In this document: in pieces, positions 6,886 through 61,910 of the stretch
Position numbering within the stretch: position 1 is the stretch's first letter
Layout: every line of letters starts with the position of its first letter
Assembly (NCBI GenBank): GCA_022825825.1
Contig: JAJDWA010000023.1
Span: 12,707-76,706 of the forward strand
Length of the DNA: 64,000 nucleotides
Reading direction: 5' to 3'
From: Candidatus Poribacteria bacterium
GTDB taxonomy: Bacteria > Poribacteria > WGA-4E > WGA-3G
The notes under the pieces: generated by a model
Database searches by the model: none
Told to the model about the DNA's origin: nothing
Seen by the model: the letters and a program-made list of their open reading frames with translations, nothing else
Program-made: the position numbers and the translations under genes

Positions 6886-7953
6886 ATGGATAATACCATT
6901 CAACTCATATTAGAAAAGGCACTTGTAGGAAACCGTTTAAACTTTGATGATGCATTGACACTTTTTAAGAGTCATGATCTACTTGCGTTGGGACACGCCG
7001 CAGATGTTATCCGCCACCAAAAACACCCTGAAGGTAACGTAACCTACATTGTAGATAGGAATATTAACTACACAAACTGGTGTTATGTTGATTGTGAGTT
7101 TTGCGCCTTCTACCGCCACCGAAAAGACCCCGATGCGTATGTGATGGAACGTGAAGAACTCGGACAAAAAATCCAAGAAACCCTTGATTTAGGCGGCGAA
7201 CTTATTCTGATGCAAGGCGGACTACATCCTAAACTCAAATTGGAATGGTACGAAGATTTACTGCGTTGGATAAAAACTAACTACAAAATTCATATCCACG
7301 GATTTTCGCCACCAGAATTAGATTGGTTCGCAAAGATCAACCGTATGTCATTGCGAGAAGTTCTTACGCGCCTCCGCGATGCTGGGCTTGATTCAATTCC
7401 TGGCGGTGGGGCGGAAATCTTAACCGACCACGCTCGCAACAAAATTAGTCCGAAGAAGTGCACAGCTGACGAGTGGCTTGAAGTCATGAGGCAAGGGCAT
7501 GCGGTTGGACTCAAATCAAGTGCTACCATGATGTATGGACATGTCGAAAGTTATGCTGAACGCGTGGAACATTTAATGCGGTTGCGCGATCTACAAGATG
7601 AAACCGGAGGATTTACAGCATTTATCTGTTGGTCTTTTCAACCAAGTAACACAGAACTTGAACATATTCCGCCCGCGGGAAGTTTTGAATATCTAAAAAC
7701 TTTAGCGATCTCCCGATTGTTTTTAGATAATATTGACAACTTTCAATCGTCGTGGGTAACACAAGGGCCTAAAATTGGCCAACTCTCACTCAAGTTCGGC
7801 GCTAACGATATGGGTGGCACAATGATAGAAGAAAACGTTGTCAGCAAAGCGGGTACCGTCTACTGTATGCCGATAGAGGAGATCGAACGAACCATTTCGG
7901 AATTAGGATTTGTCCCGAAACGTAGAAACTTTTTCTACGACATTCTTAATTAA
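6886..7953 (+). CDS. mqnC: radical SAM enzyme of the futalosine menaquinone pathway. Probably cyclic dehypoxanthinyl futalosine synthase MqnC; MqnE is the alternative.
   Basis: CYVDCEFCAFYR CxxxCxxC cluster motif. NINYTN, SPPE, LDSIPGGGAEIL, ATMMYGHVES and WVTQGPKIGQLSLKFGANDMGGTMIEENVV match the MqnC/MqnE/CofH family. Confidence 0.6.
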   Translation: MDNTIQLILEKALVGNRLNFDDALTLFKSHDLLALGHAADVIRHQKHPEGNVTYIVDRNINYTNWCYVDCEFCAFYRHRKDPDAYVMEREELGQKIQETLDLGGELILMQGGLHPKLKLEWYEDLLRWIKTNYKIHIHGFSPPELDWFAKINRMSLREVLTRLRDAGLDSIPGGGAEILTDHARNKISPKKCTADEWLEVMRQGHAVGLKSSATMMYGHVESYAERVEHLMRLRDLQDETGGFTAFICWSFQPSNTELEHIPPAGSFEYLKTLAISRLFLDNIDNFQSSWVTQGPKIGQLSLKFGANDMGGTMIEENVVSKAGTVYCMPIEEIERTISELGFVPKRRNFFYDILN

Positions 7954-51771: not shown

Positions 51772-54450
51772 TTAGGTATTAAATCTACCGAGTCTCCGTC
51801 GAATACGAATTTTCTTGATAGCCCGTGTATCAGCATCTAAAATTGTGATTACTGCATCGCCAAGGTCTAATTCCGTGCCTGTTTCCGGAATTGTGCCAGT
51901 ACGATCCAGAATATAGCCAGCGATAGTTTCATAATCCCCCTGGGGAATTGGTAGTCCATAGTGTTCTTTCAAAATATCAACCTCGGTTCTACCTTCACAT
52001 TCAAGAATATCGGGGGCAATTAAATGGATGGAATCGGGGTCATCGCGTTCATCATCAAATTCGCCAACAATTTCTTCAATGAGGTCTTCAACAGTCACAA
52101 GGCCGACAATACCGCTATATTCATCAACAGCAAATACCATCGTATGCTGAGTATCCTGAATTTCTTTGAGGAGTGCGTTAATATTTTTCGATTCAGGAAC
52201 AACATGTATATCTGTACGGATAAACGGTTCGATCGTTTCAGGTTGGTTTTCAGCATAGGTAACATCTAAAAGGTTAACAATTCCAACAATGTCGTAAATA
52301 CGTTCGTCGTATACTGGAATCCGAGAGTAACCAGAATCAGCGGCAATTTGTAAAAAATCTTCACATGTTGTATTTTTTTCTACTGCGACAATATCAACGA
52401 GGGGCACCATAACTTGCCTAACAGTACGGTCTTGAAAGTTGAGTAGACGGTGAATCATGCGTCTTTGTTCTGTTAGCAGATTGCCCGATCTTTCACCCAT
52501 AGTTGCAAGTAATCGTAATTCTTCACGTTGCGCATCAAGGGTAGGTGGGGTCGCCCCTCTATCTATAAGTTTGGCGAGAACTTTTGTTACAGTTTGGACA
52601 AAATAGATTAAGGGCGCTAAAATATATTCAGATAATCGTAAAGGATACGCGAAACGCAAAGCAAGGGCATCCGCCTTGACACGAAAAATCGTTTTTGGCA
52701 AAATTTCTCCGAAGATAAGTAGTAGCACAGTTATGTAAATGACAGTGACAATCCCTCGCAATTCATCTGTAAAACTTGGTACTATTTCTTTAGTTAATCG
52801 ATCTCCAAATAGTGAAATTAGGACATTTGCGAGATTTGTTCCCACCAAAGTGAGCGCAAGCATTTTATCAGGGAATTCAACTAAACGATAGATAATTTTC
52901 GCCTTTGCGTCGTTCGTTTCAACAAGTTGGTTCATTCGGATTTTATTGACGGAGACGAGGGCAGTCTCTGAACCCGAATAAAAAGCTGACAGAACAAGGC
53001 AGATAAGCACCGCTAAAACAAATGAACTAATGAGTATCGCAGTATGTGTTACGCTGCCAGCACCGATTAAAAAGACAGACAATAGAAGTATTTTCAATGG
53101 AACGGCAGTGCCCCCTATATTCCCATTGTTAGGTTCTTCAGGTGTTGGGACTCGGATAAACAGTCCTGTAATTAGATTGCCTTCTGTGGCAGTGATTTCA
53201 AATTCTATACCGTTTTCGTCAACATGAGATTCACCGACAGAGGGAATTCGTCCAAAAAGTCCGAGTGTGTATCCACCAATTGTATCAGCATCATCTTCTT
53301 GAATTTTGAGTCCAAATTGTTGGTTGAGCTCGCGAATACTGATGCGTCCGGTAGTTTCTATCAATAGCGGATCATCTGAATGTTTGATATACTTTGGAGC
53401 AGAATCATCTTTATCATGTTCATCAACGATATCTCCTACTACCTGTTCAACGATATCTTCAGTTGTAACGATGCCGGAAATTCCACCGTATTCATCACGA
53501 AGAATCGCCATTTTGGTTTTTTCGTTTTGCAGTTGGAGTAGCAGTATTCCGATTTTTCGGGTTTCAAGGACTAAAAAAGGTTCGCGAATTAATGGAGCGT
53601 TTGTATTTTTCTCCCGTTTTTCAAGAAATTCATCTATTGTAAGCGAATTAATCTCTGCAAGGTGCCACTGCGCTAAATCTTTGACATAGAAAATACCACA
53701 GATGTTATCAATCTGTTTCCGATAAACAGGAATGCGAGAAAACCCCGATTCTTTTGCCTGTGCCAAGGTGTCTTGGATAGTGTTTGAGGTGGGGACTGCA
53801 GCAACTTCAGTTCTGGGAACCATAATTTCTTTTGCTTCAATATCTCGTAATTGAAGGATATTGCTCACGATTTCGCGTTCATCGGGTGGAAGCGTTTCTT
53901 CGTGATAAGCTTTAAAGAACTCTTGTAAATCTGTTGTCGTGAACTCCTCTTCAGGTGGCGGGTGTCCACCAAATATTGGGATAAGCTTATCAATGATTTT
54001 GCGTAGAAGTGCGCGTAAAGGGGAAATGAAAATGGAAAATGCCCACAACGGTGGGGCAGTTATTTTAGAGAAGGACTCCGCATGCTTAATTGCATAAGTT
54101 TTCGGTGTCATTTCACCGAAAATGAGCATGGGGATCACGCTGAGTGTTGTAGCAATAACAAACTGAGTAAGCTCAGCAGCTTGGGGAAGTATTTTCTTCT
54201 CAACAAGCTGAAACATAATAATAGCGAATGTAACGTTAACCAGATTGTTTCCAAGGAGGACAGTAATAAATAATCTGCGTGGGTTGTCAACGAAATTGAC
54301 AATTGCAGACGATTTTCCGCGCTTGAGACGTATCTTTTCGATCTGCACTCGCGTTAAAGCGCATAGAGCCGTCTCGGACCCGGAAAAAAAGCCGGAGAGG
54401 ATAAGTAAACCTACCAATCCAATTAGATAAGGCAGTAGTGGAACTTCCAT
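51772..54450 (-). CDS. tandem-fused CNNM/CorC (HlyC/CorC, TlyC-like) transporter: 2 x (DUF21 - CBS pair - CorC_HlyC)
   Basis: The first unit spans roughly aa 1-440 (FFSGSETAL..., IMVPRTEV..., GRISIRELNQQFGL...). The second spans roughly aa 465-892 (FYSGSETAL..., VMVPLVDI..., GRTEVDILKEHYGL...). Confidence 0.9.
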   Translation of the reverse strand: MEVPLLPYLIGLVGLLILSGFFSGSETALCALTRVQIEKIRLKRGKSSAIVNFVDNPRRLFITVLLGNNLVNVTFAIIMFQLVEKKILPQAAELTQFVIATTLSVIPMLIFGEMTPKTYAIKHAESFSKITAPPLWAFSIFISPLRALLRKIIDKLIPIFGGHPPPEEEFTTTDLQEFFKAYHEETLPPDEREIVSNILQLRDIEAKEIMVPRTEVAAVPTSNTIQDTLAQAKESGFSRIPVYRKQIDNICGIFYVKDLAQWHLAEINSLTIDEFLEKREKNTNAPLIREPFLVLETRKIGILLLQLQNEKTKMAILRDEYGGISGIVTTEDIVEQVVGDIVDEHDKDDSAPKYIKHSDDPLLIETTGRISIRELNQQFGLKIQEDDADTIGGYTLGLFGRIPSVGESHVDENGIEFEITATEGNLITGLFIRVPTPEEPNNGNIGGTAVPLKILLLSVFLIGAGSVTHTAILISSFVLAVLICLVLSAFYSGSETALVSVNKIRMNQLVETNDAKAKIIYRLVEFPDKMLALTLVGTNLANVLISLFGDRLTKEIVPSFTDELRGIVTVIYITVLLLIFGEILPKTIFRVKADALALRFAYPLRLSEYILAPLIYFVQTVTKVLAKLIDRGATPPTLDAQREELRLLATMGERSGNLLTEQRRMIHRLLNFQDRTVRQVMVPLVDIVAVEKNTTCEDFLQIAADSGYSRIPVYDERIYDIVGIVNLLDVTYAENQPETIEPFIRTDIHVVPESKNINALLKEIQDTQHTMVFAVDEYSGIVGLVTVEDLIEEIVGEFDDERDDPDSIHLIAPDILECEGRTEVDILKEHYGLPIPQGDYETIAGYILDRTGTIPETGTELDLGDAVITILDADTRAIKKIRIRRRLGRFNT

Positions 54451-54656: not shown

Positions 54657-55310
54657 ATGAGGCAGTTTATGACAAAATTAGAACAGATGCAACGTATTGA
54701 GGCATGCGGTATTGTCGCTATAATTCGCGCTAACAGTTCAAATGAACTGATTGAGGCGGCAGCGGCTATTCAAACTGGAGGTGTTGACGTTATTGAAATA
54801 ACGATGACAACACCCGATGCGTTACGGGTAATTAGCGAAGTGTCCGCACAGTTAGGCGATGCCGTTTTAGTAGGAGTTGGGTCAGTATTAGATGCTGAGA
54901 CAGCACGCGCAGCAATGCTCGCTGGTGCTGAATTTGTTGTCAGTCCTGTTACAAAGCCAGACGTGATTGAAATCTGCAATCGGTATGGCAAAGTCGTTAT
55001 ACCGGGCGCATTCACACCTACAGAAATTTTAGCAGCATGGGAAACAGGTGCAGATTATGTGAAGGTCTTCCCTTCAAGTGGAGTCGGCCCCTCTTATATT
55101 AAGGATGTAAAAGCACCCCTTCCACAGATTCCACTTATTCCGACTGGCGGCATCAATGCGGAAAATGCAGATGAATTCATTAAGGCTGGTGCATCTGCAT
55201 TGGGTGTCGGCAGTGCCTTGGTCAGTAGTTCTCTCATTGAATCTGGAGATTTCGCGATGCTTACAGAAAGAGCGAAAAATTTAATCAATGCTGTCAAATT
55301 TGCCAGATGA
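54657..55310 (+). CDS. eda: 2-dehydro-3-deoxy-phosphogluconate / 4-hydroxy-2-oxoglutarate aldolase
   Basis: GIVAIIRA, IEITMTTP, VVSP, and VKVFPSS (Schiff-base Lys). The ATG at 54669, 6 nt after GAGG, is an alternative start. Confidence 0.85.
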   Translation: MRQFMTKLEQMQRIEACGIVAIIRANSSNELIEAAAAIQTGGVDVIEITMTTPDALRVISEVSAQLGDAVLVGVGSVLDAETARAAMLAGAEFVVSPVTKPDVIEICNRYGKVVIPGAFTPTEILAAWETGADYVKVFPSSGVGPSYIKDVKAPLPQIPLIPTGGINAENADEFIKAGASALGVGSALVSSSLIESGDFAMLTERAKNLINAVKFAR

Positions 55311-55598: not shown

Positions 55599-57590
55599 AT
55601 GAAGATTAACGAATTGATATTAGGTAAATATAGGTTGCTTGAGTATCTCAGTTCAGGCAGCTTTTCGTCTGTTTTTCGTGCGCGCGAAGAAATGACGAAG
55701 CGTATCGTTGCGATCAAAGCCCTCTCCAAAGATGCTTATCCAGCGGACAGAATGCAATACCTCCAAAACGAGCTTCGAGCAATGTCAAATATATGGAGGC
55801 ATCCTAATATCGTCTCTATCCATACCGTTGAACCGGGGCAGGACAACTATATAGCATGGATAGTAATGGAGTATATTGAAGGAACTAACCTACATCAACA
55901 CGTTCAACAAGGCGACTTAACATTAAACGATGTCCTTAATATCGGTTTGGATATCTGCAACGGTTTAAAAGCTGTACATGCCAACAATATCCTACACCGT
56001 GATATTAAGCCACAAAATATATTACTCACACCTAAGAAAGAAGCAAAAATAGCGGATTTTAGTATCGCACGCATTTTGGGCAAAACAACCCAATTCGCCG
56101 GAACCATGACCGGTACCCGCCGTTACATGGCACCAGAACAACATTATGGCGCTTATGATTTTCGGGCGGATCTATACGCTACAGGTTTAGTCCTTTATGA
56201 AGCACTTACAAAACAATTCCCTTTTTCTGGAGAAGCCGATGAAATTGATAGAAAAAAAGCGTCGGGCGAAATAGAAAACCTTGACGAATGCCCCGAGGAA
56301 TTTCGTAATTTTATGCAAAAGGCACTCCATCGAGAGGTGGATAAACGTTACCAAACGGCATCTGAAATGTATGAGGAGCTTGATCGAATCCGCCGTTGGC
56401 AATACGAACAGCAAGCTTCTATCTTTATTGCCGAAAGTGCTAATTCACCCGCAACTGAACTCGCAAGTGCACTTGAACGCTGCCGAAAAACTTTTCGCTT
56501 ACAAATTGATGTTGCCGAGCAAATCAACCAGAACCTCTTCTTTGAGGTGCGTAGCAAAGTCGAAAAAGAAAATAGAGAAAAAAATAAGATCCAACTCATG
56601 CAACATTACACAGAAGCGATTAAATATGCACGCAACGGAGACATAGACGACACGCTTCGAGAAGTCCATAAGGCACATCACCTCTGTCTACAAGAGGCAG
56701 AACTCGTTACAAAAGCAGATACCCTCTTCAAGGAAACAAGCACAGCAGCATCAAGGCAGAATGCCTCAACAGTTCAGGATATTGCTACACTGATTGAGGA
56801 ACTCCCTGAAACAGAAAAATCAAACTTATTTGATGTGTTGAACGTATCAGAGGTTCAGACTGAGCCTACGGTTCATCAGGCAGAACCGGAAGTTAATCAT
56901 GCCCCCCCTGAAGTTTACCATGGAGAATGGGACACACTATCTCTCCCGAAAACTCCTGCACAACAAGTAGGCAATTACCGGGTTTTAATACAGGAAGCCT
57001 CTCCTGAATTTTTATTGGATAAAGTTCACGAAGATATACAATATCCGCATGAGGAAGAAGCAGCCTATATTTATCAACAAGCACAAATTTTTATGCAACA
57101 AGAGGATATACATAGATGTCTTGGACAGTATAAAAGACTTGGGGCTTTTTATCACAGGCACGCTAAACGGTTTATTAGAACGAACAACATAGAACTCGTC
57201 GCGAATTGTTATACACGCGCGCGATTTGCTTACGCAGCTGCACAAAAGCAACGGAGTGCAAGGAAAAACGCAAGGAATGGTGCCGTGTACTACGTTCACC
57301 TTGCACGACAATTAGAAATACAACGCACATGGATGGAAGCAGGTATGTCATACATCTTCGCTGCCGACAATTACCGTTTTGCCCAGCTTAGTTTGGAAGT
57401 TGAAAAGTGCGAATCTGCTGCAACTGTTAACTATTTCAATGCTGCCGAAAGCGCACATCTCACCGGTGATCTTCAAACCGCTTACGAGTACTATATGTTA
57501 ATTTTATCTATTGGTGAGAAATTGCAAAATCCGCCGAGATCAGTTATTGAAGCACAAAAATTGATTGAGGAAATTCGGAGAGGTAATTAG
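55599..57590 (+). CDS. Hanks-type Ser/Thr protein kinase with a soluble helical-repeat (TPR-like) C-terminal region of about 380 aa
   Basis: VAIK (K40), HRDIKPQN (D134), DFS (for DFG), YMAPE. No TM segment. The C-terminus is rich in A/Y/Q helices. Confidence 0.9.
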   Translation: MKINELILGKYRLLEYLSSGSFSSVFRAREEMTKRIVAIKALSKDAYPADRMQYLQNELRAMSNIWRHPNIVSIHTVEPGQDNYIAWIVMEYIEGTNLHQHVQQGDLTLNDVLNIGLDICNGLKAVHANNILHRDIKPQNILLTPKKEAKIADFSIARILGKTTQFAGTMTGTRRYMAPEQHYGAYDFRADLYATGLVLYEALTKQFPFSGEADEIDRKKASGEIENLDECPEEFRNFMQKALHREVDKRYQTASEMYEELDRIRRWQYEQQASIFIAESANSPATELASALERCRKTFRLQIDVAEQINQNLFFEVRSKVEKENREKNKIQLMQHYTEAIKYARNGDIDDTLREVHKAHHLCLQEAELVTKADTLFKETSTAASRQNASTVQDIATLIEELPETEKSNLFDVLNVSEVQTEPTVHQAEPEVNHAPPEVYHGEWDTLSLPKTPAQQVGNYRVLIQEASPEFLLDKVHEDIQYPHEEEAAYIYQQAQIFMQQEDIHRCLGQYKRLGAFYHRHAKRFIRTNNIELVANCYTRARFAYAAAQKQRSARKNARNGAVYYVHLARQLEIQRTWMEAGMSYIFAADNYRFAQLSLEVEKCESAATVNYFNAAESAHLTGDLQTAYEYYMLILSIGEKLQNPPRSVIEAQKLIEEIRRGN

Positions 57591-57770
57591 AAATAAACCG
57601 TTGTAGACACAATTGTTTGTGGAAATTTGCAACCGTTGTCGAGCAAATACAAGGATTTACTGAAATAACTCGTGAAGACGTTATAAAAAATACTTGCCAA
57701 CATCTCAATCTATTTTGGTTTAATCTTTTGAATTTTTTCGAAGTTGTTTGGCAAATCCTGTAAGGAATTA

Positions 57771-60437
57771 ATGATGATTAAATCTTTTAATTCAGAAGTT
57801 GAATGCTTCTCTGAGATAGAACGGCTGAGATTATTACAGCAGCAACAGATTCTCCGACCAGAAGTGATACCCCAAGAACTTGCCAAATCCAAACAATGGA
57901 TAGTTTGGTCGTATGAAGTTACTGAACAAATTGGCGGAATATACAGAGTAGAAAAACACCCATACCAACCTAAAAACCCAGATAATACAATTATAAGGAA
58001 TCGCCATTCAGATTGGTCTGATTTAGCAACAGCAATAAGATGTTTTCAAGAAAACTCACATATCGATGGAATTGGTTACTTGTTTGTTGAAGGTGATGGT
58101 CTGATCGGTATTGATTTAGACAACTGTCGTAACCCTGATACGAGTAAAATTCGAGAAGAATATTTATTCTGGATAAAGAAATTCGGCAGTTATGCTGAGA
58201 TATCGCCTTCTGGCACAGGTGTAAAGATTTGGGTAAAAGGAACAGTGTCTGATAATTATTTTTTGTCTAATGAATCATCTGGATTTAGAATTCTAAACTT
58301 TGCAGGTGGGGAGATAGAAATATATAGGCACGGACAATACTTCGCTGTTACAACTCAAATGATAAACGGTTTTGACACTATAAGGGATGCGCAAGTAGAA
58401 CTTGATGTCATCTGTGAATTTTCAGCGTCTAGAACTCAGCGGGACTTTAGATATTCTTCTTGTCCTGATTACCAACTTACTGAACTTGATGCAAACCGTG
58501 AATTGTCCTTGTTGCAGGGTTTTTGGAATGATACGGGTCTTGCATATATTGATGAATCAGAACCAAAAGAATTAGTACCAGAATCCGGTGATGAATCTCA
58601 AGAGTCTAAACAAATATCACGTGACGAACAAAAATGGATAAAAGATGAACTTGATTTTACAAATAAACATATGCTTAGGGATCCAGCTAGTGAACCTAAC
58701 GTGGTAAAGGAAACTGTAACAGACACCTCTCCCTTTGAAGCAAATTTGCTGTTGAAAAGTAAGAAGGAGTACTTTGGTGAAACACGTTGTAAGAATTGCC
58801 CTGGGAATAGTTATGGGTATGAACTATGTCCAAGATGTTATGCAGCTGCACACCCTGAAGAAAAAGTGGAGGATGCTGTTTATGAATATTTTTCGAAATT
58901 ATCGAAATTTTCAGTAGTTCGTCAACCCGACTATGAAATCACATTGGGATCTAAAAAAATGATACCTGACGTTGTGCTGCTTGATACAAAAGAAAATATT
59001 ATAGCCATAGCCGAGTGTAAGCGAGAGTACACAATTTTTGACGGGATTGAACAGTTAAAATCCTATCTCAGTGCTAGTGACACACAATTTGGGATATTTG
59101 CTAATAGTATAGAACCAGAAAACTGGATTTTCTATGAAAATTTACGGGGGCACCGTTTTGAAGAAAATATTCCACGTTCTCGTTTTGAGAATGAAATTGT
59201 AGCAAACCGACACATTAAATCTATTAGAGAAGAAAAAAATGAATTAGAAAGTAAAATATCACATTTATGCAAACGGCATACAAGGAATGTAAGTGATATA
59301 GAAGTTTCAAATAAGGAATTAAATGAATTAGAAAATCATATTAAGAATGAACGTGAGACACATACAAAACTGAAAGAGGATAACGATAAATTAGTAAAGA
59401 AAAATGCCGATTTAACTATAGAAATTAATAAGAACGCTAAACAATTAGAAGTACAAGAATCCTTTAAATTAATTTCTACACGCGATAAACTGACATCACA
59501 AGTTTCCAAACTTAGTACACGTAAGGATTGGCTGGAAAAGGCAATTGAAACTATGCTGGAAAGGAAAAAGTGCTTATCAAAAAAAATCAGTGTTGCATTT
59601 GAGATAGTTTCTCTGAATGAGCAAAAGTATCAATTACAAAATGAAATCAGAGTTATGCAGCAACAAAGCGCGAACTTATCTGAGAAAACCAAGTCGTTAC
59701 GTAGTCAAAAGAGTACATTTGAAAAAGAACAAAATAAAATCATATCTGATCGCACCAAACTTGAAAAAGAAAAGGATTCTTGGCTACAAAAACTAAAAAA
59801 TAAAAAAATAGAACTCTCTGATATAGAAGAACGTATTAAACACAGAGCAAAACCTCTTAGGGATCTTGGTAGATTGGCTAGATTGGACGAACTGGAGGAA
59901 GCATTCTCCGAGGGATCTATCTACGGACAACTTGAAAAAGAACTTGAACGGTTACAGGAAATAGAATCAGAAATTGTGTTTAAACAAGAACTCGCGCGGG
60001 ATAGCCAGGAAAAGTACGCAGCTTTTGAACGAAATCAAGTAAAAATCAATCAGAAAAAGCAACAACGCGTTCAAGCATCCCAAGACAAGGAAAGAATCCT
60101 AAACCAGATTAGAAGGGTTGTCACTCGATTGCGAACCGCAAATCCTGAACAAAAACAGCAAATTGAAAAACATCGCAAACAATTAATAGGGGACTTGAAA
60201 CAGCAAAAACATAATTGTTCACAAATTTTAGCGGAAATCAGCCAGTTAGAAGATGTAAAATCCAAATTGGAATCTGAAAATAGGGTAAAGGAACATCATT
60301 TCTCATTTACAGAAAAAGATGTACTTCCCACATACTTGCAGATAGAGGAAGAAATTGATATGCTGAAAACAGAAAAATATAAACTTGAAGCGGAAATCGG
60401 ACATCGGGTTTTTGAACTTATACCGAAGAAAGATTGA
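57771..60437 (+). CDS. multidomain protein: AEP (primase-polymerase-like) N-domain, CxxC..CxxC Zn ribbon, PD-(D/E)xK (HsdR-N-like) nuclease fold, and a coiled coil of about 400 aa
   Basis: Numbering from the TTG at 57744. IGIDLD (aa 121-126), SPSGTGVKIW (154-163), IEIYRHGQYFAVT (191-203), CKNC...CPRC (349-364), PD409...E424-C-K426, then K/E/Q/L-rich heptads to the end. The ATG at 57771, after AAGGA, is the preferred start. Confidence 0.8.
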   Translation: MMIKSFNSEVECFSEIERLRLLQQQQILRPEVIPQELAKSKQWIVWSYEVTEQIGGIYRVEKHPYQPKNPDNTIIRNRHSDWSDLATAIRCFQENSHIDGIGYLFVEGDGLIGIDLDNCRNPDTSKIREEYLFWIKKFGSYAEISPSGTGVKIWVKGTVSDNYFLSNESSGFRILNFAGGEIEIYRHGQYFAVTTQMINGFDTIRDAQVELDVICEFSASRTQRDFRYSSCPDYQLTELDANRELSLLQGFWNDTGLAYIDESEPKELVPESGDESQESKQISRDEQKWIKDELDFTNKHMLRDPASEPNVVKETVTDTSPFEANLLLKSKKEYFGETRCKNCPGNSYGYELCPRCYAAAHPEEKVEDAVYEYFSKLSKFSVVRQPDYEITLGSKKMIPDVVLLDTKENIIAIAECKREYTIFDGIEQLKSYLSASDTQFGIFANSIEPENWIFYENLRGHRFEENIPRSRFENEIVANRHIKSIREEKNELESKISHLCKRHTRNVSDIEVSNKELNELENHIKNERETHTKLKEDNDKLVKKNADLTIEINKNAKQLEVQESFKLISTRDKLTSQVSKLSTRKDWLEKAIETMLERKKCLSKKISVAFEIVSLNEQKYQLQNEIRVMQQQSANLSEKTKSLRSQKSTFEKEQNKIISDRTKLEKEKDSWLQKLKNKKIELSDIEERIKHRAKPLRDLGRLARLDELEEAFSEGSIYGQLEKELERLQEIESEIVFKQELARDSQEKYAAFERNQVKINQKKQQRVQASQDKERILNQIRRVVTRLRTANPEQKQQIEKHRKQLIGDLKQQKHNCSQILAEISQLEDVKSKLESENRVKEHHFSFTEKDVLPTYLQIEEEIDMLKTEKYKLEAEIGHRVFELIPKKD

Positions 60438-60468: not shown

Positions 60469-61656
60469 ATGATTTCACTATCACAACGAAGTCAAAACGT
60501 AACACCATCATCAACCTTAGCCATCACAGCGAAAATCAACGCGATGATCGCGGATGGCGTAGATGTCGTCAAATTCGGCGCAGGCGAACCCGATTTTGAT
60601 ACACCCGACTATATCAAAGCCGCCGCAATTACTGCACTTGATGCAGGTTTTACAAAATATACACCGGTCCCCGGTATTCCCGAACTTCGGGAAGCAATCG
60701 TGGACAAATTCAAAAAAGACAACGGACTGGATTATACAACATCTCAAGTTATCGTTTCGTGCGGGGCAAAACATACCCTTTACAATATCATGCAAGCGAT
60801 ATGTGACCCAGATGATGAAGTCATCTTTGCTGCACCCTACTGGGTGAGTTATCCACAGCAGATTAAGTTAGCAGGGGCTGTGCCACGCGTCATTGAAACC
60901 ACCGCCGAACAGAACTTCTGCATGCAACCCGAACAGGTGGAGGCAGCGATAACATCAAAAACAAAAGCAATTCTGATTAACAGTCCGAGCAATCCGACTG
61001 GCACCACTTATGACATAGACACCCTCAAGCAGATTGCGGCACTTGCAGTCGAAAATCAGGTCTATCTCATCTCTGATGAAATCTATGAAGCACTGCTATA
61101 CGATGGTGCAACACATCAGAGTCCCGCGTCATTCAACGAAGAGACGAAAGCGATCACCTTTGTCGTCAACGGCGTATCAAAAGCGTATTCTATGACAGGA
61201 TGGCGTATTGGGTACACCGCCGGCCCCGAAGATGCGGTTTCAGCGATGTCCCGTATCCAATCACATAGCACTTCAAATCCGACCTCCATTGCGCAGAAAG
61301 CTGCCGTGGCGGCACTCAATGAGCCGCAAGATGCCGTTGAAGAGATGCGTAAAGCATTTGAAGAACGCCGCGATGTTATCTGTCAACGTTTTGATGAGAT
61401 TGACGGTGTGAGTTATGTCAAACCGCAAGGGGCATTCTACATCTTCCCCGATTTTTCCGCACACTACGGCAGAACACTTGATGGTAAAAAAATTGAAGGG
61501 TCAATGGATATAACCGATTATCTGCTCGGTTCCGCAGGTGTCGGTGTTGTGCCGGGTGATGGCTTCGGTGCAGATAACAATTTGCGCCTCTCCTTTGCTA
61601 CCTCTTTGACAGAGATAAATCGCGGATTAGATCGGATTAAGAAGGCGTTGGAATAA
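60469..61656 (+). CDS. aspC: aspartate/aromatic aminotransferase (class I PLP-dependent)
   Basis: AAGGAG RBS. NSPSNPTG. SKAYSMTGWRIGY (PLP Lys). Confidence 0.9.
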   Translation: MISLSQRSQNVTPSSTLAITAKINAMIADGVDVVKFGAGEPDFDTPDYIKAAAITALDAGFTKYTPVPGIPELREAIVDKFKKDNGLDYTTSQVIVSCGAKHTLYNIMQAICDPDDEVIFAAPYWVSYPQQIKLAGAVPRVIETTAEQNFCMQPEQVEAAITSKTKAILINSPSNPTGTTYDIDTLKQIAALAVENQVYLISDEIYEALLYDGATHQSPASFNEETKAITFVVNGVSKAYSMTGWRIGYTAGPEDAVSAMSRIQSHSTSNPTSIAQKAAVAALNEPQDAVEEMRKAFEERRDVICQRFDEIDGVSYVKPQGAFYIFPDFSAHYGRTLDGKKIEGSMDITDYLLGSAGVGVVPGDGFGADNNLRLSFATSLTEINRGLDRIKKALE

Positions 61657-61910
61657 GGTTATTTTTCTTGTAAGAGGCTTTGTCCATCCAATGCATAGTA
61701 GCAGGCACGCTCCGCGTGCTGTCCGTTAAGTGTCTGAATCGCGGATTACACCGATTATACGGATTTTAAGAATACCAGCGTTCGTAGTCACGCAATTTAT
61801 TGCGCCTCTTACATTACTGCCAAATCAACATAAAAACAAGAATAATCCTGCAAATCTGAAAATCCTGGTTCAGACAACCCACAATTCAGACAAACAAAGG
61901 AGATACTATC

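Follow-up and report, generated by a model that had tools for sequence, protein, structure and literature searches.

The kinase gene and the giant gene that stand side by side between eda and aspC mark, judging from gene order, a place where two unrelated syntenic blocks meet and not a two-gene island. The giant gene alone plausibly encodes a new defence enzyme; from its sequence and conservation, we infer a stand-alone, lineage-restricted, DNA-targeting conflict (defence-type) protein. For this explanation as a whole, a block junction together with a stand-alone DNA-targeting conflict enzyme in which the kinase is uninvolved, a probability of about 0.5 is given. The locus was analyzed within the window, that is, the whole stretch of 64,000 nucleotides, and its features are as follows:

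55599..57590, + strand: Hanks-type Ser/Thr kinase, 663 aa (Pfam Pkinase, orthologue clusters, conserved context)
55632-56357, + strand: kinase domain, aa 12-253 (Pfam Pkinase, 4.5e-51)
56358-57581, + strand: all-helical kinase tail, aa 254-661 (AF2 model; disordered at 415-464, helical-hairpin repeats at 465-661)
57617..57690, + strand: dnaJ-like relic, the final ~75 nt (alignment to dnaJ 3' ends of loci L001, L008 and L010)
57774..60437, + strand: giant, 887 aa from the ATG at 57774 (ORF, database entry P0001, orthologue starts)
57774..58433, + strand: predicted AEP primase-polymerase module, aa 1-220, NrS-1-like (PHROG, PDB profile, Foldseek, pLDDT)
58434..58778, + strand: linker, aa 221-335, probably disordered (pLDDT <50 for most; 2 of 115 positions invariant)
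58779..58853, + strand: putative zinc ribbon, aa 336-360, C339-x2-C342 ... C352-x2-C355 (Cys conservation)
58854..59207, + strand: predicted PD-(D/E)xK nuclease-fold domain, aa 361-478, HSDR_N_2 (Pfam PF13588, motif conservation, pLDDT, Foldseek)
59223..60419, + strand: predicted coiled-coil region, aa 484-882 (AF2 secondary structure)
60469..61656, + strand: class I/II aminotransferase, aspC (Pfam, 7.7e-81; conserved downstream anchor of the slot)

The kinase and giant ORFs are both present and co-oriented, with a spacing of 153 nt if the giant begins at a TTG and 183 nt if it begins at an ATG, in line with the 150-180 nt of the original prediction. Their outer neighbors are the KDPG aldolase gene eda (Pfam Aldolase, 1.1e-40) and aspC. 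The TTG at 57744, earlier taken as the start of the giant, is in frame and would extend the protein by 10 aa. The ATG at 57774, which gives 887 aa, is most likely the start, because the orthologues (starting with MIKS or MKK) and the database entry P0001 (887 aa) agree with it. Residues earlier numbered D409, E424 and K426 are D399, E414 and K416 in the ATG numbering used here. The aspC gene lies 31 nt downstream of the giant in the window, overlaps the stop codon of the giant in several relatives, and is 88-97.5% identical at the amino acid level in all related loci. Between 55.2 and 60.7 kb, promoter and terminator counts were at the level expected from shuffled sequence and were uninformative. 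No integrase, helicase or tRNA was found around the giant, as had been noted before, and no flanking direct or inverted repeats either; the repeat search gave chance-level short matches only.

Gene order separates the two genes. The block of the giant reads asd-APH-dnaJ-…-giant-aspC-sulfatase. Outside the window, seven giant loci have enough upstream sequence; asd-APH-dnaJ is located upstream in all seven and the kinase in none. Loci L001-L005, L008-L010, L013 and L014 have asd-APH-dnaJ upstream of the giant, aspC downstream and no kinase. Downstream of the kinase, pfkB or HpcH-family genes and no HSDR_N_2 gene are found in two of three kinase loci (L093, L094); in L092, the closest relative, the kinase is followed by an HSDR_N_2 protein. 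No small gene upstream of the giant is conserved as a partner: in L001 the giant comes directly after dnaJ, and the intervening genes vary among loci.

The break itself can be located. Positions 57617-58100 of the window align at 80% to L001 7846-8327, beginning within the 3' end of dnaJ (L001 dnaJ, 7035-7916), and the relic at 57617-57690 also matches L008 and L010 at their dnaJ 3' ends. This remnant lies immediately 3' of the kinase stop, between kinase and giant, and places the breakpoint at about 57605-57615. L092 carries the same relic, up to 57690. The dnaJ relic shows that the adjacency of kinase and giant is a rearrangement scar: a rearrangement cutting through dnaJ joined the eda-kinase block to the giant-aspC block, and the adjacency in L092 is the same inherited rearrangement with a different cassette. 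The original prediction had treated the two genes as one island and asked whether the kinase is a conserved neighbor of the giant; these comparisons show that it is not. A false lead is thereby removed: the side-by-side placement of two genes in one genome, together with low G+C, had misled a reading made from the letters alone.

The kinase taken by itself fits its earlier description well. The motifs VAIK, HRDIKPQN, DFS and APE are readable in the translation, no transmembrane segment is present (max KD19 0.74), and the tail is all-helical in the AF2 model, with confident helical-hairpin repeats. In a Foldseek search the model drew kinase-domain matches only, the best being Stk1/PknB, and the tail drew none. 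More than 120 full-length orthologue clusters were found at 57-87% identity, with a dN/dS of 0.13. The conserved context is PTPS-folE-SDR-CNNMx2-eda-kinase, a housekeeping context in which the kinase is the end of the syntenic block. These data indicate an intact Hanks-type kinase that is a core gene of Candidatus Poribacteria under purifying selection. Its PADLOC matches, PD-T4-6, mad6 and PglW, do not reach beyond the generic kinase domain; against NCBIfam the scores fall far short, with 170 bits for MAD6 (cut-off 460) and 92 bits for PglW (cut-off 990). Partner genes of the PD-T4-6, MADS (MAD6) or BREX (PglW) systems were not found with the kinase. The giant matched 0 families of PADLOC-DB v2 at E <= 0.1, as the original prediction had expected.

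By fold and motifs, the N-terminal module of the giant belongs to the AEP superfamily, within the PrimPol/NrS-1-like clade. It matched PHROG primase families at 7e-33, the PDB chains 7rr3/6a9w/6k9a, labelled 'Primase', at about 1e-18 in profile comparison, and the NrS-1 primase-polymerase N300 at 2.9e-13 in Foldseek (rmsd 2.2 A, 191 columns). The module is modelled with pLDDT >90, and 75 of its 220 positions are invariant. Its key residues do not vary among the 14 orthologues; they are D114xD116, the S144-P145-S146 loop, K151 and E180/E182. In the PDB profile alignment, S144-P145-S146 falls on the SPS tripeptide of NrS-1, which is S108-P109-S110 and belongs to a loop of described role (PMC8718748). 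K151 stands at the motif II position where other AEPs have H. Inactivation of the module by this His-to-Lys change was considered and rejected, since K and H alternate across the mobile-element primases of the clade and Lys is common in its bona fide primase-helicases.

According to work cited in PMC8718748, a helix-bundle domain is needed for priming. In the giant, the region aa 221-335 is poorly conserved, has pLDDT <50 and contains no confidently modelled helix bundle; Foldseek aligned the catalytic core only. An insertion at aa 262-303 of this linker occurs in the window protein only. De novo priming by the giant is therefore uncertain; a divergent or induced-fit helix bundle may be present in this region. 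As its nearest outgroups the module has primases or primase-helicases from phages and plasmids, with 27-38% identity, and none of the phage or plasmid records matches beyond it (aa ~30-250 of the giant only).

In the putative zinc ribbon, C339, C342 and C352 are invariant and C355 is nearly invariant among the 14 orthologues. The ribbon accompanies the nuclease core also in AEP-less and OB-fold variants. The nuclease domain scored 31.6 bits against Pfam HSDR_N_2 (PF13588; gathering cut-off 25). Its P398-D399 and E414-x-K416 are invariant in the 14 orthologues, and in a wider set of 94 relatives their conservation is at least 90%; with Q427xxxY431 they complete an invariant D...ExK...QxxxY motif. 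The model has pLDDT of about 90 at aa 360-476. Its Foldseek matches include 6okh (E 0.017, probability 1.00) and 1wdj TT1808 (E 0.14), both of which are restriction-endonuclease-like folds. With probabilities of 0.9-1.0 and weak E-values, these matches are supportive rather than strong for a restriction-endonuclease-like fold in the giant.

The remainder of the protein is predicted by AF2 to form long helices at aa 484-593, 612-691, 716-788, 791-840 and 853-882, rich in E (14%), K (14%) and L (11%). A C-terminal helix motif, LPxYLxIxxEIxxLKxEKxxLEAEIGHxIF, is conserved, and an insertion at aa 586-619 occurs in the window protein only. Matches of the coil stay at generic coiled-coil level. SMC models, with cut-offs of 567-729 bits, scored 17-18 bits, over the coil only. 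Pfam found no ABC ATPase head, Walker domain or helicase domain in the giant, and no membrane segment is present (max KD19 1.01). The domains of the original prediction, an AEP fold, a zinc ribbon, a PD-(D/E)xK core and a coiled coil of about 400 residues, have all stood up to profile and model comparison, and the AEP and nuclease cores are both present in the structural model.

The giant is A+T-rich, as was originally observed for its coiled-coil part. GC is 0.30-0.31 at 59.0-59.75 kb, and the GC3 of 0.275 is the lowest among the 33 long ORFs in the window. The Lys/Glu/Asn-rich composition of the coiled coil was rejected as the sole cause, since GC3 is also lowest and the AEP half is equally low. 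The original prediction saw horizontal acquisition in this composition; recent horizontal transfer was rejected because the dS of the giant (0.64-0.93) equals that of its flanks aspC and sulfatase (0.52-1.17). Synteny is also kept, and low GC3 is common to all giant orthologues, including one in a GC-richer genome. In contrast to dS, the dN/dS of the giant is 0.33-0.40 and that of the flanks 0.024-0.036, about 12-fold lower, and the difference is seen in every domain. Orthologue ORFs of 795-846 aa stay intact at dS >1.7. These rates show vertical descent of the giant together with its flanks, while the protein has evolved about 12 times faster with every catalytic motif kept. A dN/dS of 0.3-0.4 points to relaxed or diversifying selection and is not proof of positive selection.

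In a survey of about 11 distinct loci, the Zn-nuclease core was found in the slot between dnaJ and aspC in more than one architecture. The L092 protein, with sharp homology boundaries, joins OB folds and a zinc ribbon to the nuclease, and also has a hydrophobic segment and a ComEA-like HHH; L176 carries an AEP-less variant. Across relatives, the N-terminal module on the nuclease core is an AEP, an OB-fold, an uncharacterised 200-aa domain or nothing, and the architecture has been swapped or shortened between genomes only dS ~0.5 apart. Beside the slot, toxin-antitoxin genes (DUF433/DUF5615) and an MTase-HNH gene are found. When metagenome contigs were surveyed with aspC as anchor, all that came up were aspC relatives of other phyla, ~50% identical.

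The nuclease-core family is very small and lineage-restricted: 208 representatives were found in 1.84 billion proteins, and relatives of the giant number about 45 (clusters at 90% identity), against more than 120 for the kinase. Partner domains of the core include the OB-fold tRNA_anti_2 (21 representatives), ComEA-like HHH_3 (5) and DprA (2), as well as Macro and TPR; these are DNA-binding modules or sensor repeats. Elsewhere, the AEP module forms a fusion with WD40-DarT, and the genes that come next are one of the NADAR-DarT1 family and one for a ThsB-like TIR protein. DarT and NADAR are known to pair as toxin and antitoxin (PMC11543638, PMC11125620). A TPR-bearing paralogue adjoins a transposase and an RM system.

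The giant may be a conflict or defence protein because it evolves fast, its slot swaps cassettes, and its modules are common with DarT-NADAR and RM-adjacent paralogues. In the mechanism proposed here, the constant core of zinc ribbon, PD-(D/E)xK nuclease and coiled coil would cut DNA, and the coiled coil would probably bring about dimers or larger assemblies. Substrate choice would fall to the exchangeable N-terminal module, by means of a primase-polymerase recruited from mobile-element primases here and an OB-fold or nothing elsewhere; the substrate would most likely be single-stranded or replicating foreign DNA. Since its polymerase residues are invariant, the AEP module probably does more than bind the target and makes or lengthens a strand there, and one possibility is that this synthesis makes a duplex that the nuclease cuts. 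The kinase would play no part. Against a role in defence, the giant is fixed in one chromosomal position over dS >1.7 and tightly linked to a housekeeping aminotransferase, which would also suit constitutive maintenance. Nor does the giant match any known defence profile in PADLOC.

Other explanations were weighed against that of a conflict enzyme. In the two-gene defence module first proposed, a cytoplasmic sensor-kinase would detect infection and control a primase-nuclease effector. The close, co-oriented arrangement, the PADLOC matches of the kinase domain to PD-T4-6 and mad6, and the kinase followed by an HSDR_N_2 protein in L092 might be cited for it. However, the pairing is missing from all seven giant loci outside the window and from two of three kinase loci, the dnaJ relic lies between the genes, kinase orthologues far outnumber giant relatives, the PADLOC matches are generic-domain only and far under NCBIfam cut-offs, and the L092 adjacency goes back to the same rearrangement; such a module can hardly be upheld. 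A domesticated or decaying replication protein of a mobile element, a primase that has lost its helicase and now serves the cell in no way or is purely selfish, is very improbable as well. Phage and plasmid primases as nearest AEP outgroups, low GC3 and raised dN/dS would suit such a remnant, but ORFs of ~800-890 aa remain intact with catalytic residues invariant over dS >1.7, integrase, helicase, repeats and tRNA are missing nearby, and the giant has co-diverged with host genes. In line with the original prediction, the giant does not look like a fragment of a replicon: phage and plasmid records cover the AEP module only, and the flanks are syntenic host genes.

A DNA repair or maintenance enzyme would be a possible though rather doubtful identity for the giant. 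The nuclease would trim, the AEP would fill or join in a LigD-like or MMEJ-like manner, and the coiled coil would tether ends as in Rad50/SbcC. The stable chromosomal position with vertical descent, tight linkage with aspC and dnaJ, and intact polymerase and nuclease motifs agree with this, and bacterial PrimPols with repair activities are documented, such as AgaPP, which has TLS, terminal transferase and MMEJ activities (PMC11724360). Less compatible with repair are the ~12-fold raised dN/dS in every domain, the swapping or shortening of architecture at dS ~0.5, the very small and lineage-restricted family, sister architectures with DarT, WD40 and TPR next to NADAR, TIR and RM genes, and the lack of an ATPase head, ligase or Ku partner in the neighborhood of the window and related loci. 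Policing or processing of DNA from natural transformation, in which the nuclease core with interchangeable ssDNA- or dsDNA-binding modules acts near the uptake machinery, is unlikely for the giant. The HHH_3, DprA and tRNA_anti_2 partners and the combined domains of the L092 protein speak for it, but the window giant has no membrane segment, HHH or DprA, and no competence genes are adjacent. This explanation also overlaps a defence role and does not exclude it.

Within the preferred reading of the giant as a conflict enzyme, a bolder and rather unlikely version may be sketched: a new class of 'prime and cut' immune enzyme in a single polypeptide. An NrS-1-type AEP from mobile elements would copy invading ssDNA or replicating DNA, and the coiled-coil-assembled Zn/PD-(D/E)xK nuclease would destroy the product; the same AEP would be re-used by Poribacteria in other effectors (DarT-NADAR, WD40, TPR) as a lineage-specific modular immune toolkit. 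No description was found in the literature searched on Poribacteria and primase or on AEP-nuclease-coiled-coil systems. This agrees with the original statement that no described system has the domain combination of the giant, and the defence catalogues contained none. If the giant restricts foreign DNA, it would represent a second kind of AEP-based immunity besides RT-PrimPol fusions and open, for the first time, a functional approach to immunity in Poribacteria, an uncultivated phylum of sponge symbionts. As a repair factor, by contrast, it would be a polymerase-nuclease tether of an unusual kind that evolves rapidly.

Comparison with known systems places each part of the giant separately. 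The AEP fold, the DxD and the dNTP-contacting SPS loop are common to the giant, the NrS-1 primase-polymerase (N300; PDB 6a9w, 6jon, 7rr3) and the P4-type and phi105-type phage and plasmid primases (PMC8718748), and NrS-1 and the giant have a similar E-x-Y...R/Q-Y-F-T-V-T strand. Unlike NrS-1, the giant has no modelled helix bundle and no helicase, and it has Lys for His at motif II, as in many mobile-element primases; its AEP is fused to a zinc ribbon, nuclease and coiled coil, and the gene descends vertically with the chromosome and does not belong to a replicon. The nuclease resembles HSDR_N_2 and the N-terminal nucleases of type I HsdR, with a score above Pfam gathering, the invariant D...ExK...QxxxY motif and a restriction-endonuclease-like fold in the model. 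However, the SF2 helicase/translocase motor, HsdM and HsdS of type I systems are missing from the giant, which belongs to a small subfamily with a zinc ribbon before and a coiled coil after the nuclease.

Nuclease together with extensive coiled coil is also seen in CoCoNuT type IV restriction (PMC11090510) and the SMC-like arms of Lamassu/Wadjet. JetC and SMC arms gave weak Foldseek coiled-coil matches to the giant. The giant differs in lacking the McrB/McrC GTPase, the ABC/SMC ATPase head and partner genes, and gene content sets it apart from CoCoNuT: no McrB-type GTPase or McrC gene was found within 8 kb in the window or 11 related loci. In the DRT7 / PPRT RT-PrimPol fusions, an AEP domain is likewise contained in one large protein, a likeness at the level of the AEP superfamily, and an anti-phage role has been proposed or demonstrated for these PrimPol-containing proteins (bioRxiv 10.64898/2026.04.18.719102; PMC12439943). 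The giant has no reverse transcriptase, and its partners are a nuclease and a coiled coil.

In Shedu SduA, a variable N-terminal sensor domain is placed on a constant PD-(D/E)xK core. The nuclease of the giant is HSDR_N_2 and not DUF4263, it is accompanied by a zinc ribbon and coiled coil, and its N-terminal module is, judging by motifs, a conserved enzyme; as in Shedu, the family of the giant combines a constant nuclease core with exchangeable N-terminal modules.

Two co-oriented ORFs are present between an aldolase and an aminotransferase gene, as described in the original prediction:

54657-55310: KDPG/KHG aldolase (eda; Pfam Aldolase, 1.1e-40)
55599-57590, plus strand: protein kinase, 663 aa (Pfam Pkinase, 4.5e-51, aa 12-253)
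57617-57690: relic of a dnaJ 3' end
57774-60437, plus strand: giant AEP/Zn-ribbon/nuclease/coiled-coil protein, 887 aa
60469-61656: class I/II aminotransferase (aspC; Pfam, 7.7e-81)

Their interpretation as a two-gene unit, with the kinase as a conserved neighbour of the giant, is not supported as stated. Eleven loci with giant orthologues (L001-L010, L013) were examined, together with L014, which carries a shorter paralogue. Wherever downstream sequence exists, the giant gene lies directly 5' of the same aminotransferase, followed by sulfatase and LamG genes. In all seven distinct non-window loci with sufficient upstream sequence, it is preceded by asd, an APH-family kinase gene and a dnaJ-like gene, and the Hanks kinase was found in none of them; some loci also have small variable genes or a DUF433/DUF5615 toxin-antitoxin pair between the dnaJ-like gene and the giant. 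In the window, the relic begins 27 nt past the kinase stop codon and aligns to the final ~75 nt of the dnaJ-like gene in L001, L008 and L010; from there the match to L001 extends across the intergenic spacer and into the giant gene (485 nt at 80%). Thus, a rearrangement with its breakpoint in dnaJ brought two blocks together. L091/L092, the nearest relative as judged by kinase identity (87%), has the same junction and relic, so the event was inherited and is not private to the window; the relic places the block fusion in a common ancestor of the window and L092 genomes.

The kinase itself corresponds to its prediction as an active-looking Hanks kinase without a membrane anchor. The translation contains VAIK, HRDIKPQN, DFS and APE, no hydrophobic segment was found across its 663 aa, and Stk1/PknB kinase domains are the top Foldseek matches. 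The predicted helical-repeat tail is also borne out: in an AlphaFold model built with 42 orthologues it is all-helical, with helices at 254-414, a disordered stretch at 415-464 and confident helical-hairpin repeats at 465-661. More than 120 clusters of full-length orthologues share 57-87% identity, and dN/dS is 0.13. The kinase is the last gene of the block PTPS-folE-SDR-CNNM-CNNM-eda-kinase, which runs on into pfkB or HpcH-family genes in the relative loci L093 and L094. In the window, the CNNM pair is one 892-aa ORF with two CNNM-CBS-CorC units (51772-54450, minus strand), where L092 and L094 have two separate genes of ~445 aa; this reflects either a gene fusion in the window genome or a lost stop codon.

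The giant had been listed from TTG 57744 (897 aa). Its orthologues and its own database entry (P0001) begin at ATG 57774, so the 887-aa numbering is used here; residue numbers in the original prediction are higher by 10. The parts are as follows:

aa 1-220: AEP primase-polymerase (PHROG primase families, 7e-33; PDB 'Primase' chains, 1e-18; pLDDT >90)
aa 221-335: linker, poorly conserved, probably disordered
C339/C342/C352/C355: four-Cys zinc ribbon (orthologue conservation)
aa 361-478: HSDR_N_2 PD-(D/E)xK domain (31.6 bits, gathering score 25; pLDDT ~90)
aa 484-882: long helices in the structural model, with breaks at ~594-611, 692-715 and 841-852

All domains predicted from the sequence alone, including the coiled coil of ~400 residues, are thus supported by profiles, Foldseek, the model and conservation. 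The AEP is matched by Foldseek to the NrS-1 primase-polymerase (2.9e-13, rmsd 2.2 A), and its S144-P145-S146 aligns with the NrS-1 SPS loop. Together with D114xD116, K151 and E180/E182, this motif is invariant in 14 full-length orthologues, and from the sequence the AEP active site looks intact. Lys151 replaces a His of other AEPs; inactivation was ruled out as its meaning because Lys and His alternate there among outgroup mobile-element primase-helicases. No helix-bundle domain appears in the structural model; evidence cited in PMC8718748 indicates that this domain of PrimPols is required for priming and dispensable for extension, so the giant may prime de novo or may only extend. In the nuclease domain, which has Foldseek matches to 6okh and 1wdj, P398-D399...E414-x-K416...Q427xxxY431 are invariant. 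Two insertions missing from the other 13 aligned orthologues, aa 262-303 (58557-58682) in the disordered linker and aa 586-619 (59529-59630) at the first coiled-coil break, account for the extra length of the window protein (887 aa vs ~829).

Substitution rates were compared between the window and four genomes (L001, L006, L008, L010).

Substitution rates of the giant and its flanking genes
aspC: dS 0.53-0.83; dN 0.012-0.029; dN/dS 0.024-0.035
sulfatase: dS 0.58-1.17; dN 0.016-0.039; dN/dS 0.026-0.036
giant: dS 0.64-0.93; dN 0.25-0.30; dN/dS 0.33-0.40

The giant's dN/dS is ~12-fold above its flanks, and the increase is seen in each of the main modules (AEP 0.23-0.42, Zn ribbon plus nuclease 0.19-0.38, coiled coil 0.34-0.43). 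Its dS equals that of the flanks and synteny is conserved; therefore, the gene co-diverged with its neighbours. The A+T-richness that had been taken to fit horizontal acquisition is real and not an amino-acid effect alone (at 0.275, GC3 is lower than in any other of the window's 33 long ORFs), but recent acquisition is contradicted by dS and synteny. GC3 is 0.24-0.33 in every orthologue (L001, L002, L006, L008, L010), including where synonymous sites are saturated, and stays low in L002 although flanking genes there reach 0.5-0.6. Low GC3 is thus a standing property of the gene; the simplest guess at its cause would be low expression or weak selection on codons.

The named relatives of kinase and giant are both from Candidatus Poribacteria, and the window aminotransferase shares 97.5% identity with its counterpart on a complete Poribacteria chromosome (L011). 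The giant has ~20 clusters of full-length relatives (42-56% identity), apparently all in this phylum. Beyond it, matches are confined to the AEP module (27-38% identity) and come from primases or primase-helicases of phages, plasmids and haloarchaea; none of the phage or plasmid records extends over the nuclease or coiled coil. Searched exhaustively with the Zn-nuclease segment, 1.84 billion proteins gave just 208 representatives. Among 94 of these, the partner domains are OB-fold (21), TPR (13), Macro (7), ComEA-like HHH (5) and DprA (2); among relatives P0216-P0358, the Zn-ribbon/HSDR_N_2 core is also fused to Tubulin_2 (2 representatives).

The position directly upstream of aspC is variable. 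Nucleotide similarity between L092 and the window ends at 57690 and restarts 45 nt before aspC, and L092 has in between an 85-aa ORF and a 574-aa protein. The latter, consisting of two OB folds, a Zn ribbon, HSDR_N_2, a hydrophobic segment, a short coiled coil and a ComEA-like HHH domain, has only the Zn-nuclease core in common with the giant (44% identity). In L176 the slot is filled by a protein that lacks the AEP and consists of nuclease and coiled coil only, and in L014 by two genes. A BLAST map of all relatives shows that the AEP module (aa 1-240) and the nuclease-coiled-coil module (aa 349-887) move independently, in these combinations:

AEP plus DarT, with or without WD40
AEP, Zn ribbon, nuclease, coiled coil and TPR
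OB-fold or unknown domain, nuclease and coiled coil
two nuclease domains plus TPR

The spacer between aspC and the sulfatase gene (61657-61910) is a second variable spot, empty in the window by comparison with L001, L008, L009, L176 and L005: several relatives carry a pair of ORFs there (~150 and ~265 aa), and an N6_N4-methylase/HNH gene occupies it in L005 and L176.

Among the sister architectures, an 847-aa protein (L175:7001-11594) joins an AEP module 52% identical to aa 1-238 of the giant with WD40 repeats and DarT. A NADAR-DarT1 family gene follows directly, and a ThsB-like TIR gene lies two genes later. This architecture forms ~10 clusters (P0036-P0045), and AEP-DarT without WD40 is found in P0026, P0027 and P0038. 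DarT and NADAR are known to pair as toxin and antitoxin, and protection against phages is established for DarTG (PMC11543638, PMC11125620); no account of a DarT-NADAR variant headed by a primase-polymerase was found. The TPR-bearing paralogue adjoins a transposase and a restriction-modification pair. Taken together, the AEP-DarT fusions and the Macro, DprA, Tubulin_2 and ComEA-like HHH partners of the core connect the family with modules of DNA ADP-ribosylation and DNA uptake.

The anatomy, conserved active sites, junction, vertical descent with rapid evolution, variable slot and shuffling can be stated with high confidence. Rapid evolution in every domain, the swapping of architectures within a single locus and the small size and lineage restriction of the family would be expected if a chromosomal hot spot maintained the gene for conflict or defence. 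The mobile-element-derived AEP, the sister fusions to a DNA-ADP-ribosylating toxin and sensor-type repeats, and the toxin-antitoxin and methylase-HNH genes beside the slot favour the same reading. We infer, with a probability of about 0.5, that the giant works alone, as a conflict or defence enzyme. The constant core of Zn ribbon, nuclease and coiled coil would be the effector, with an exchangeable N-terminal module to select the substrate. All alternative modules bind or process DNA, mostly single-stranded, so the putative target would be foreign DNA that is entering the cell or replicating. Because the polymerase residues are invariant despite fast evolution, DNA synthesis, and not mere binding, is probably required.

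The main rival, a repair or maintenance enzyme, would fit the fixed position and the tight linkage to aspC, as well as the repair activities that have been documented for bacterial PrimPols (PMC11724360); this reading is rather unlikely given the evolutionary rate, slot swapping and the kinds of sister architecture. Handling of transforming DNA, a role that overlaps with the defence reading, appears less likely still. That the gene is a functionless mobile-element remnant is improbable because intact ORFs of ~800-890 aa with invariant active sites persist at dS >1.7, and the original kinase-giant module, with the dnaJ relic between its genes, is the least credible of all.

By fold and motifs, the AEP module of the giant belongs to the NrS-1/P4-type PrimPol clade, and its nuclease domain to HSDR_N_2. 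As a whole, the protein fits no described system, in agreement with the predicted novelty of the combination and the predicted lack of a PADLOC match (no model matches). Compared with such systems, it has no helicase as in primase-helicases, no motor or partners as in type I restriction enzymes, no ATPase heads as in SMC/Rad50, no McrBC partners as in CoCoNuTs and no reverse transcriptase as in DRT7/PPRT. The giant is thus an undescribed variant assembled from known parts; by analogy, and not by membership, its closest working likeness may be to nuclease defence proteins in which a variable sensor domain is set on a constant core.
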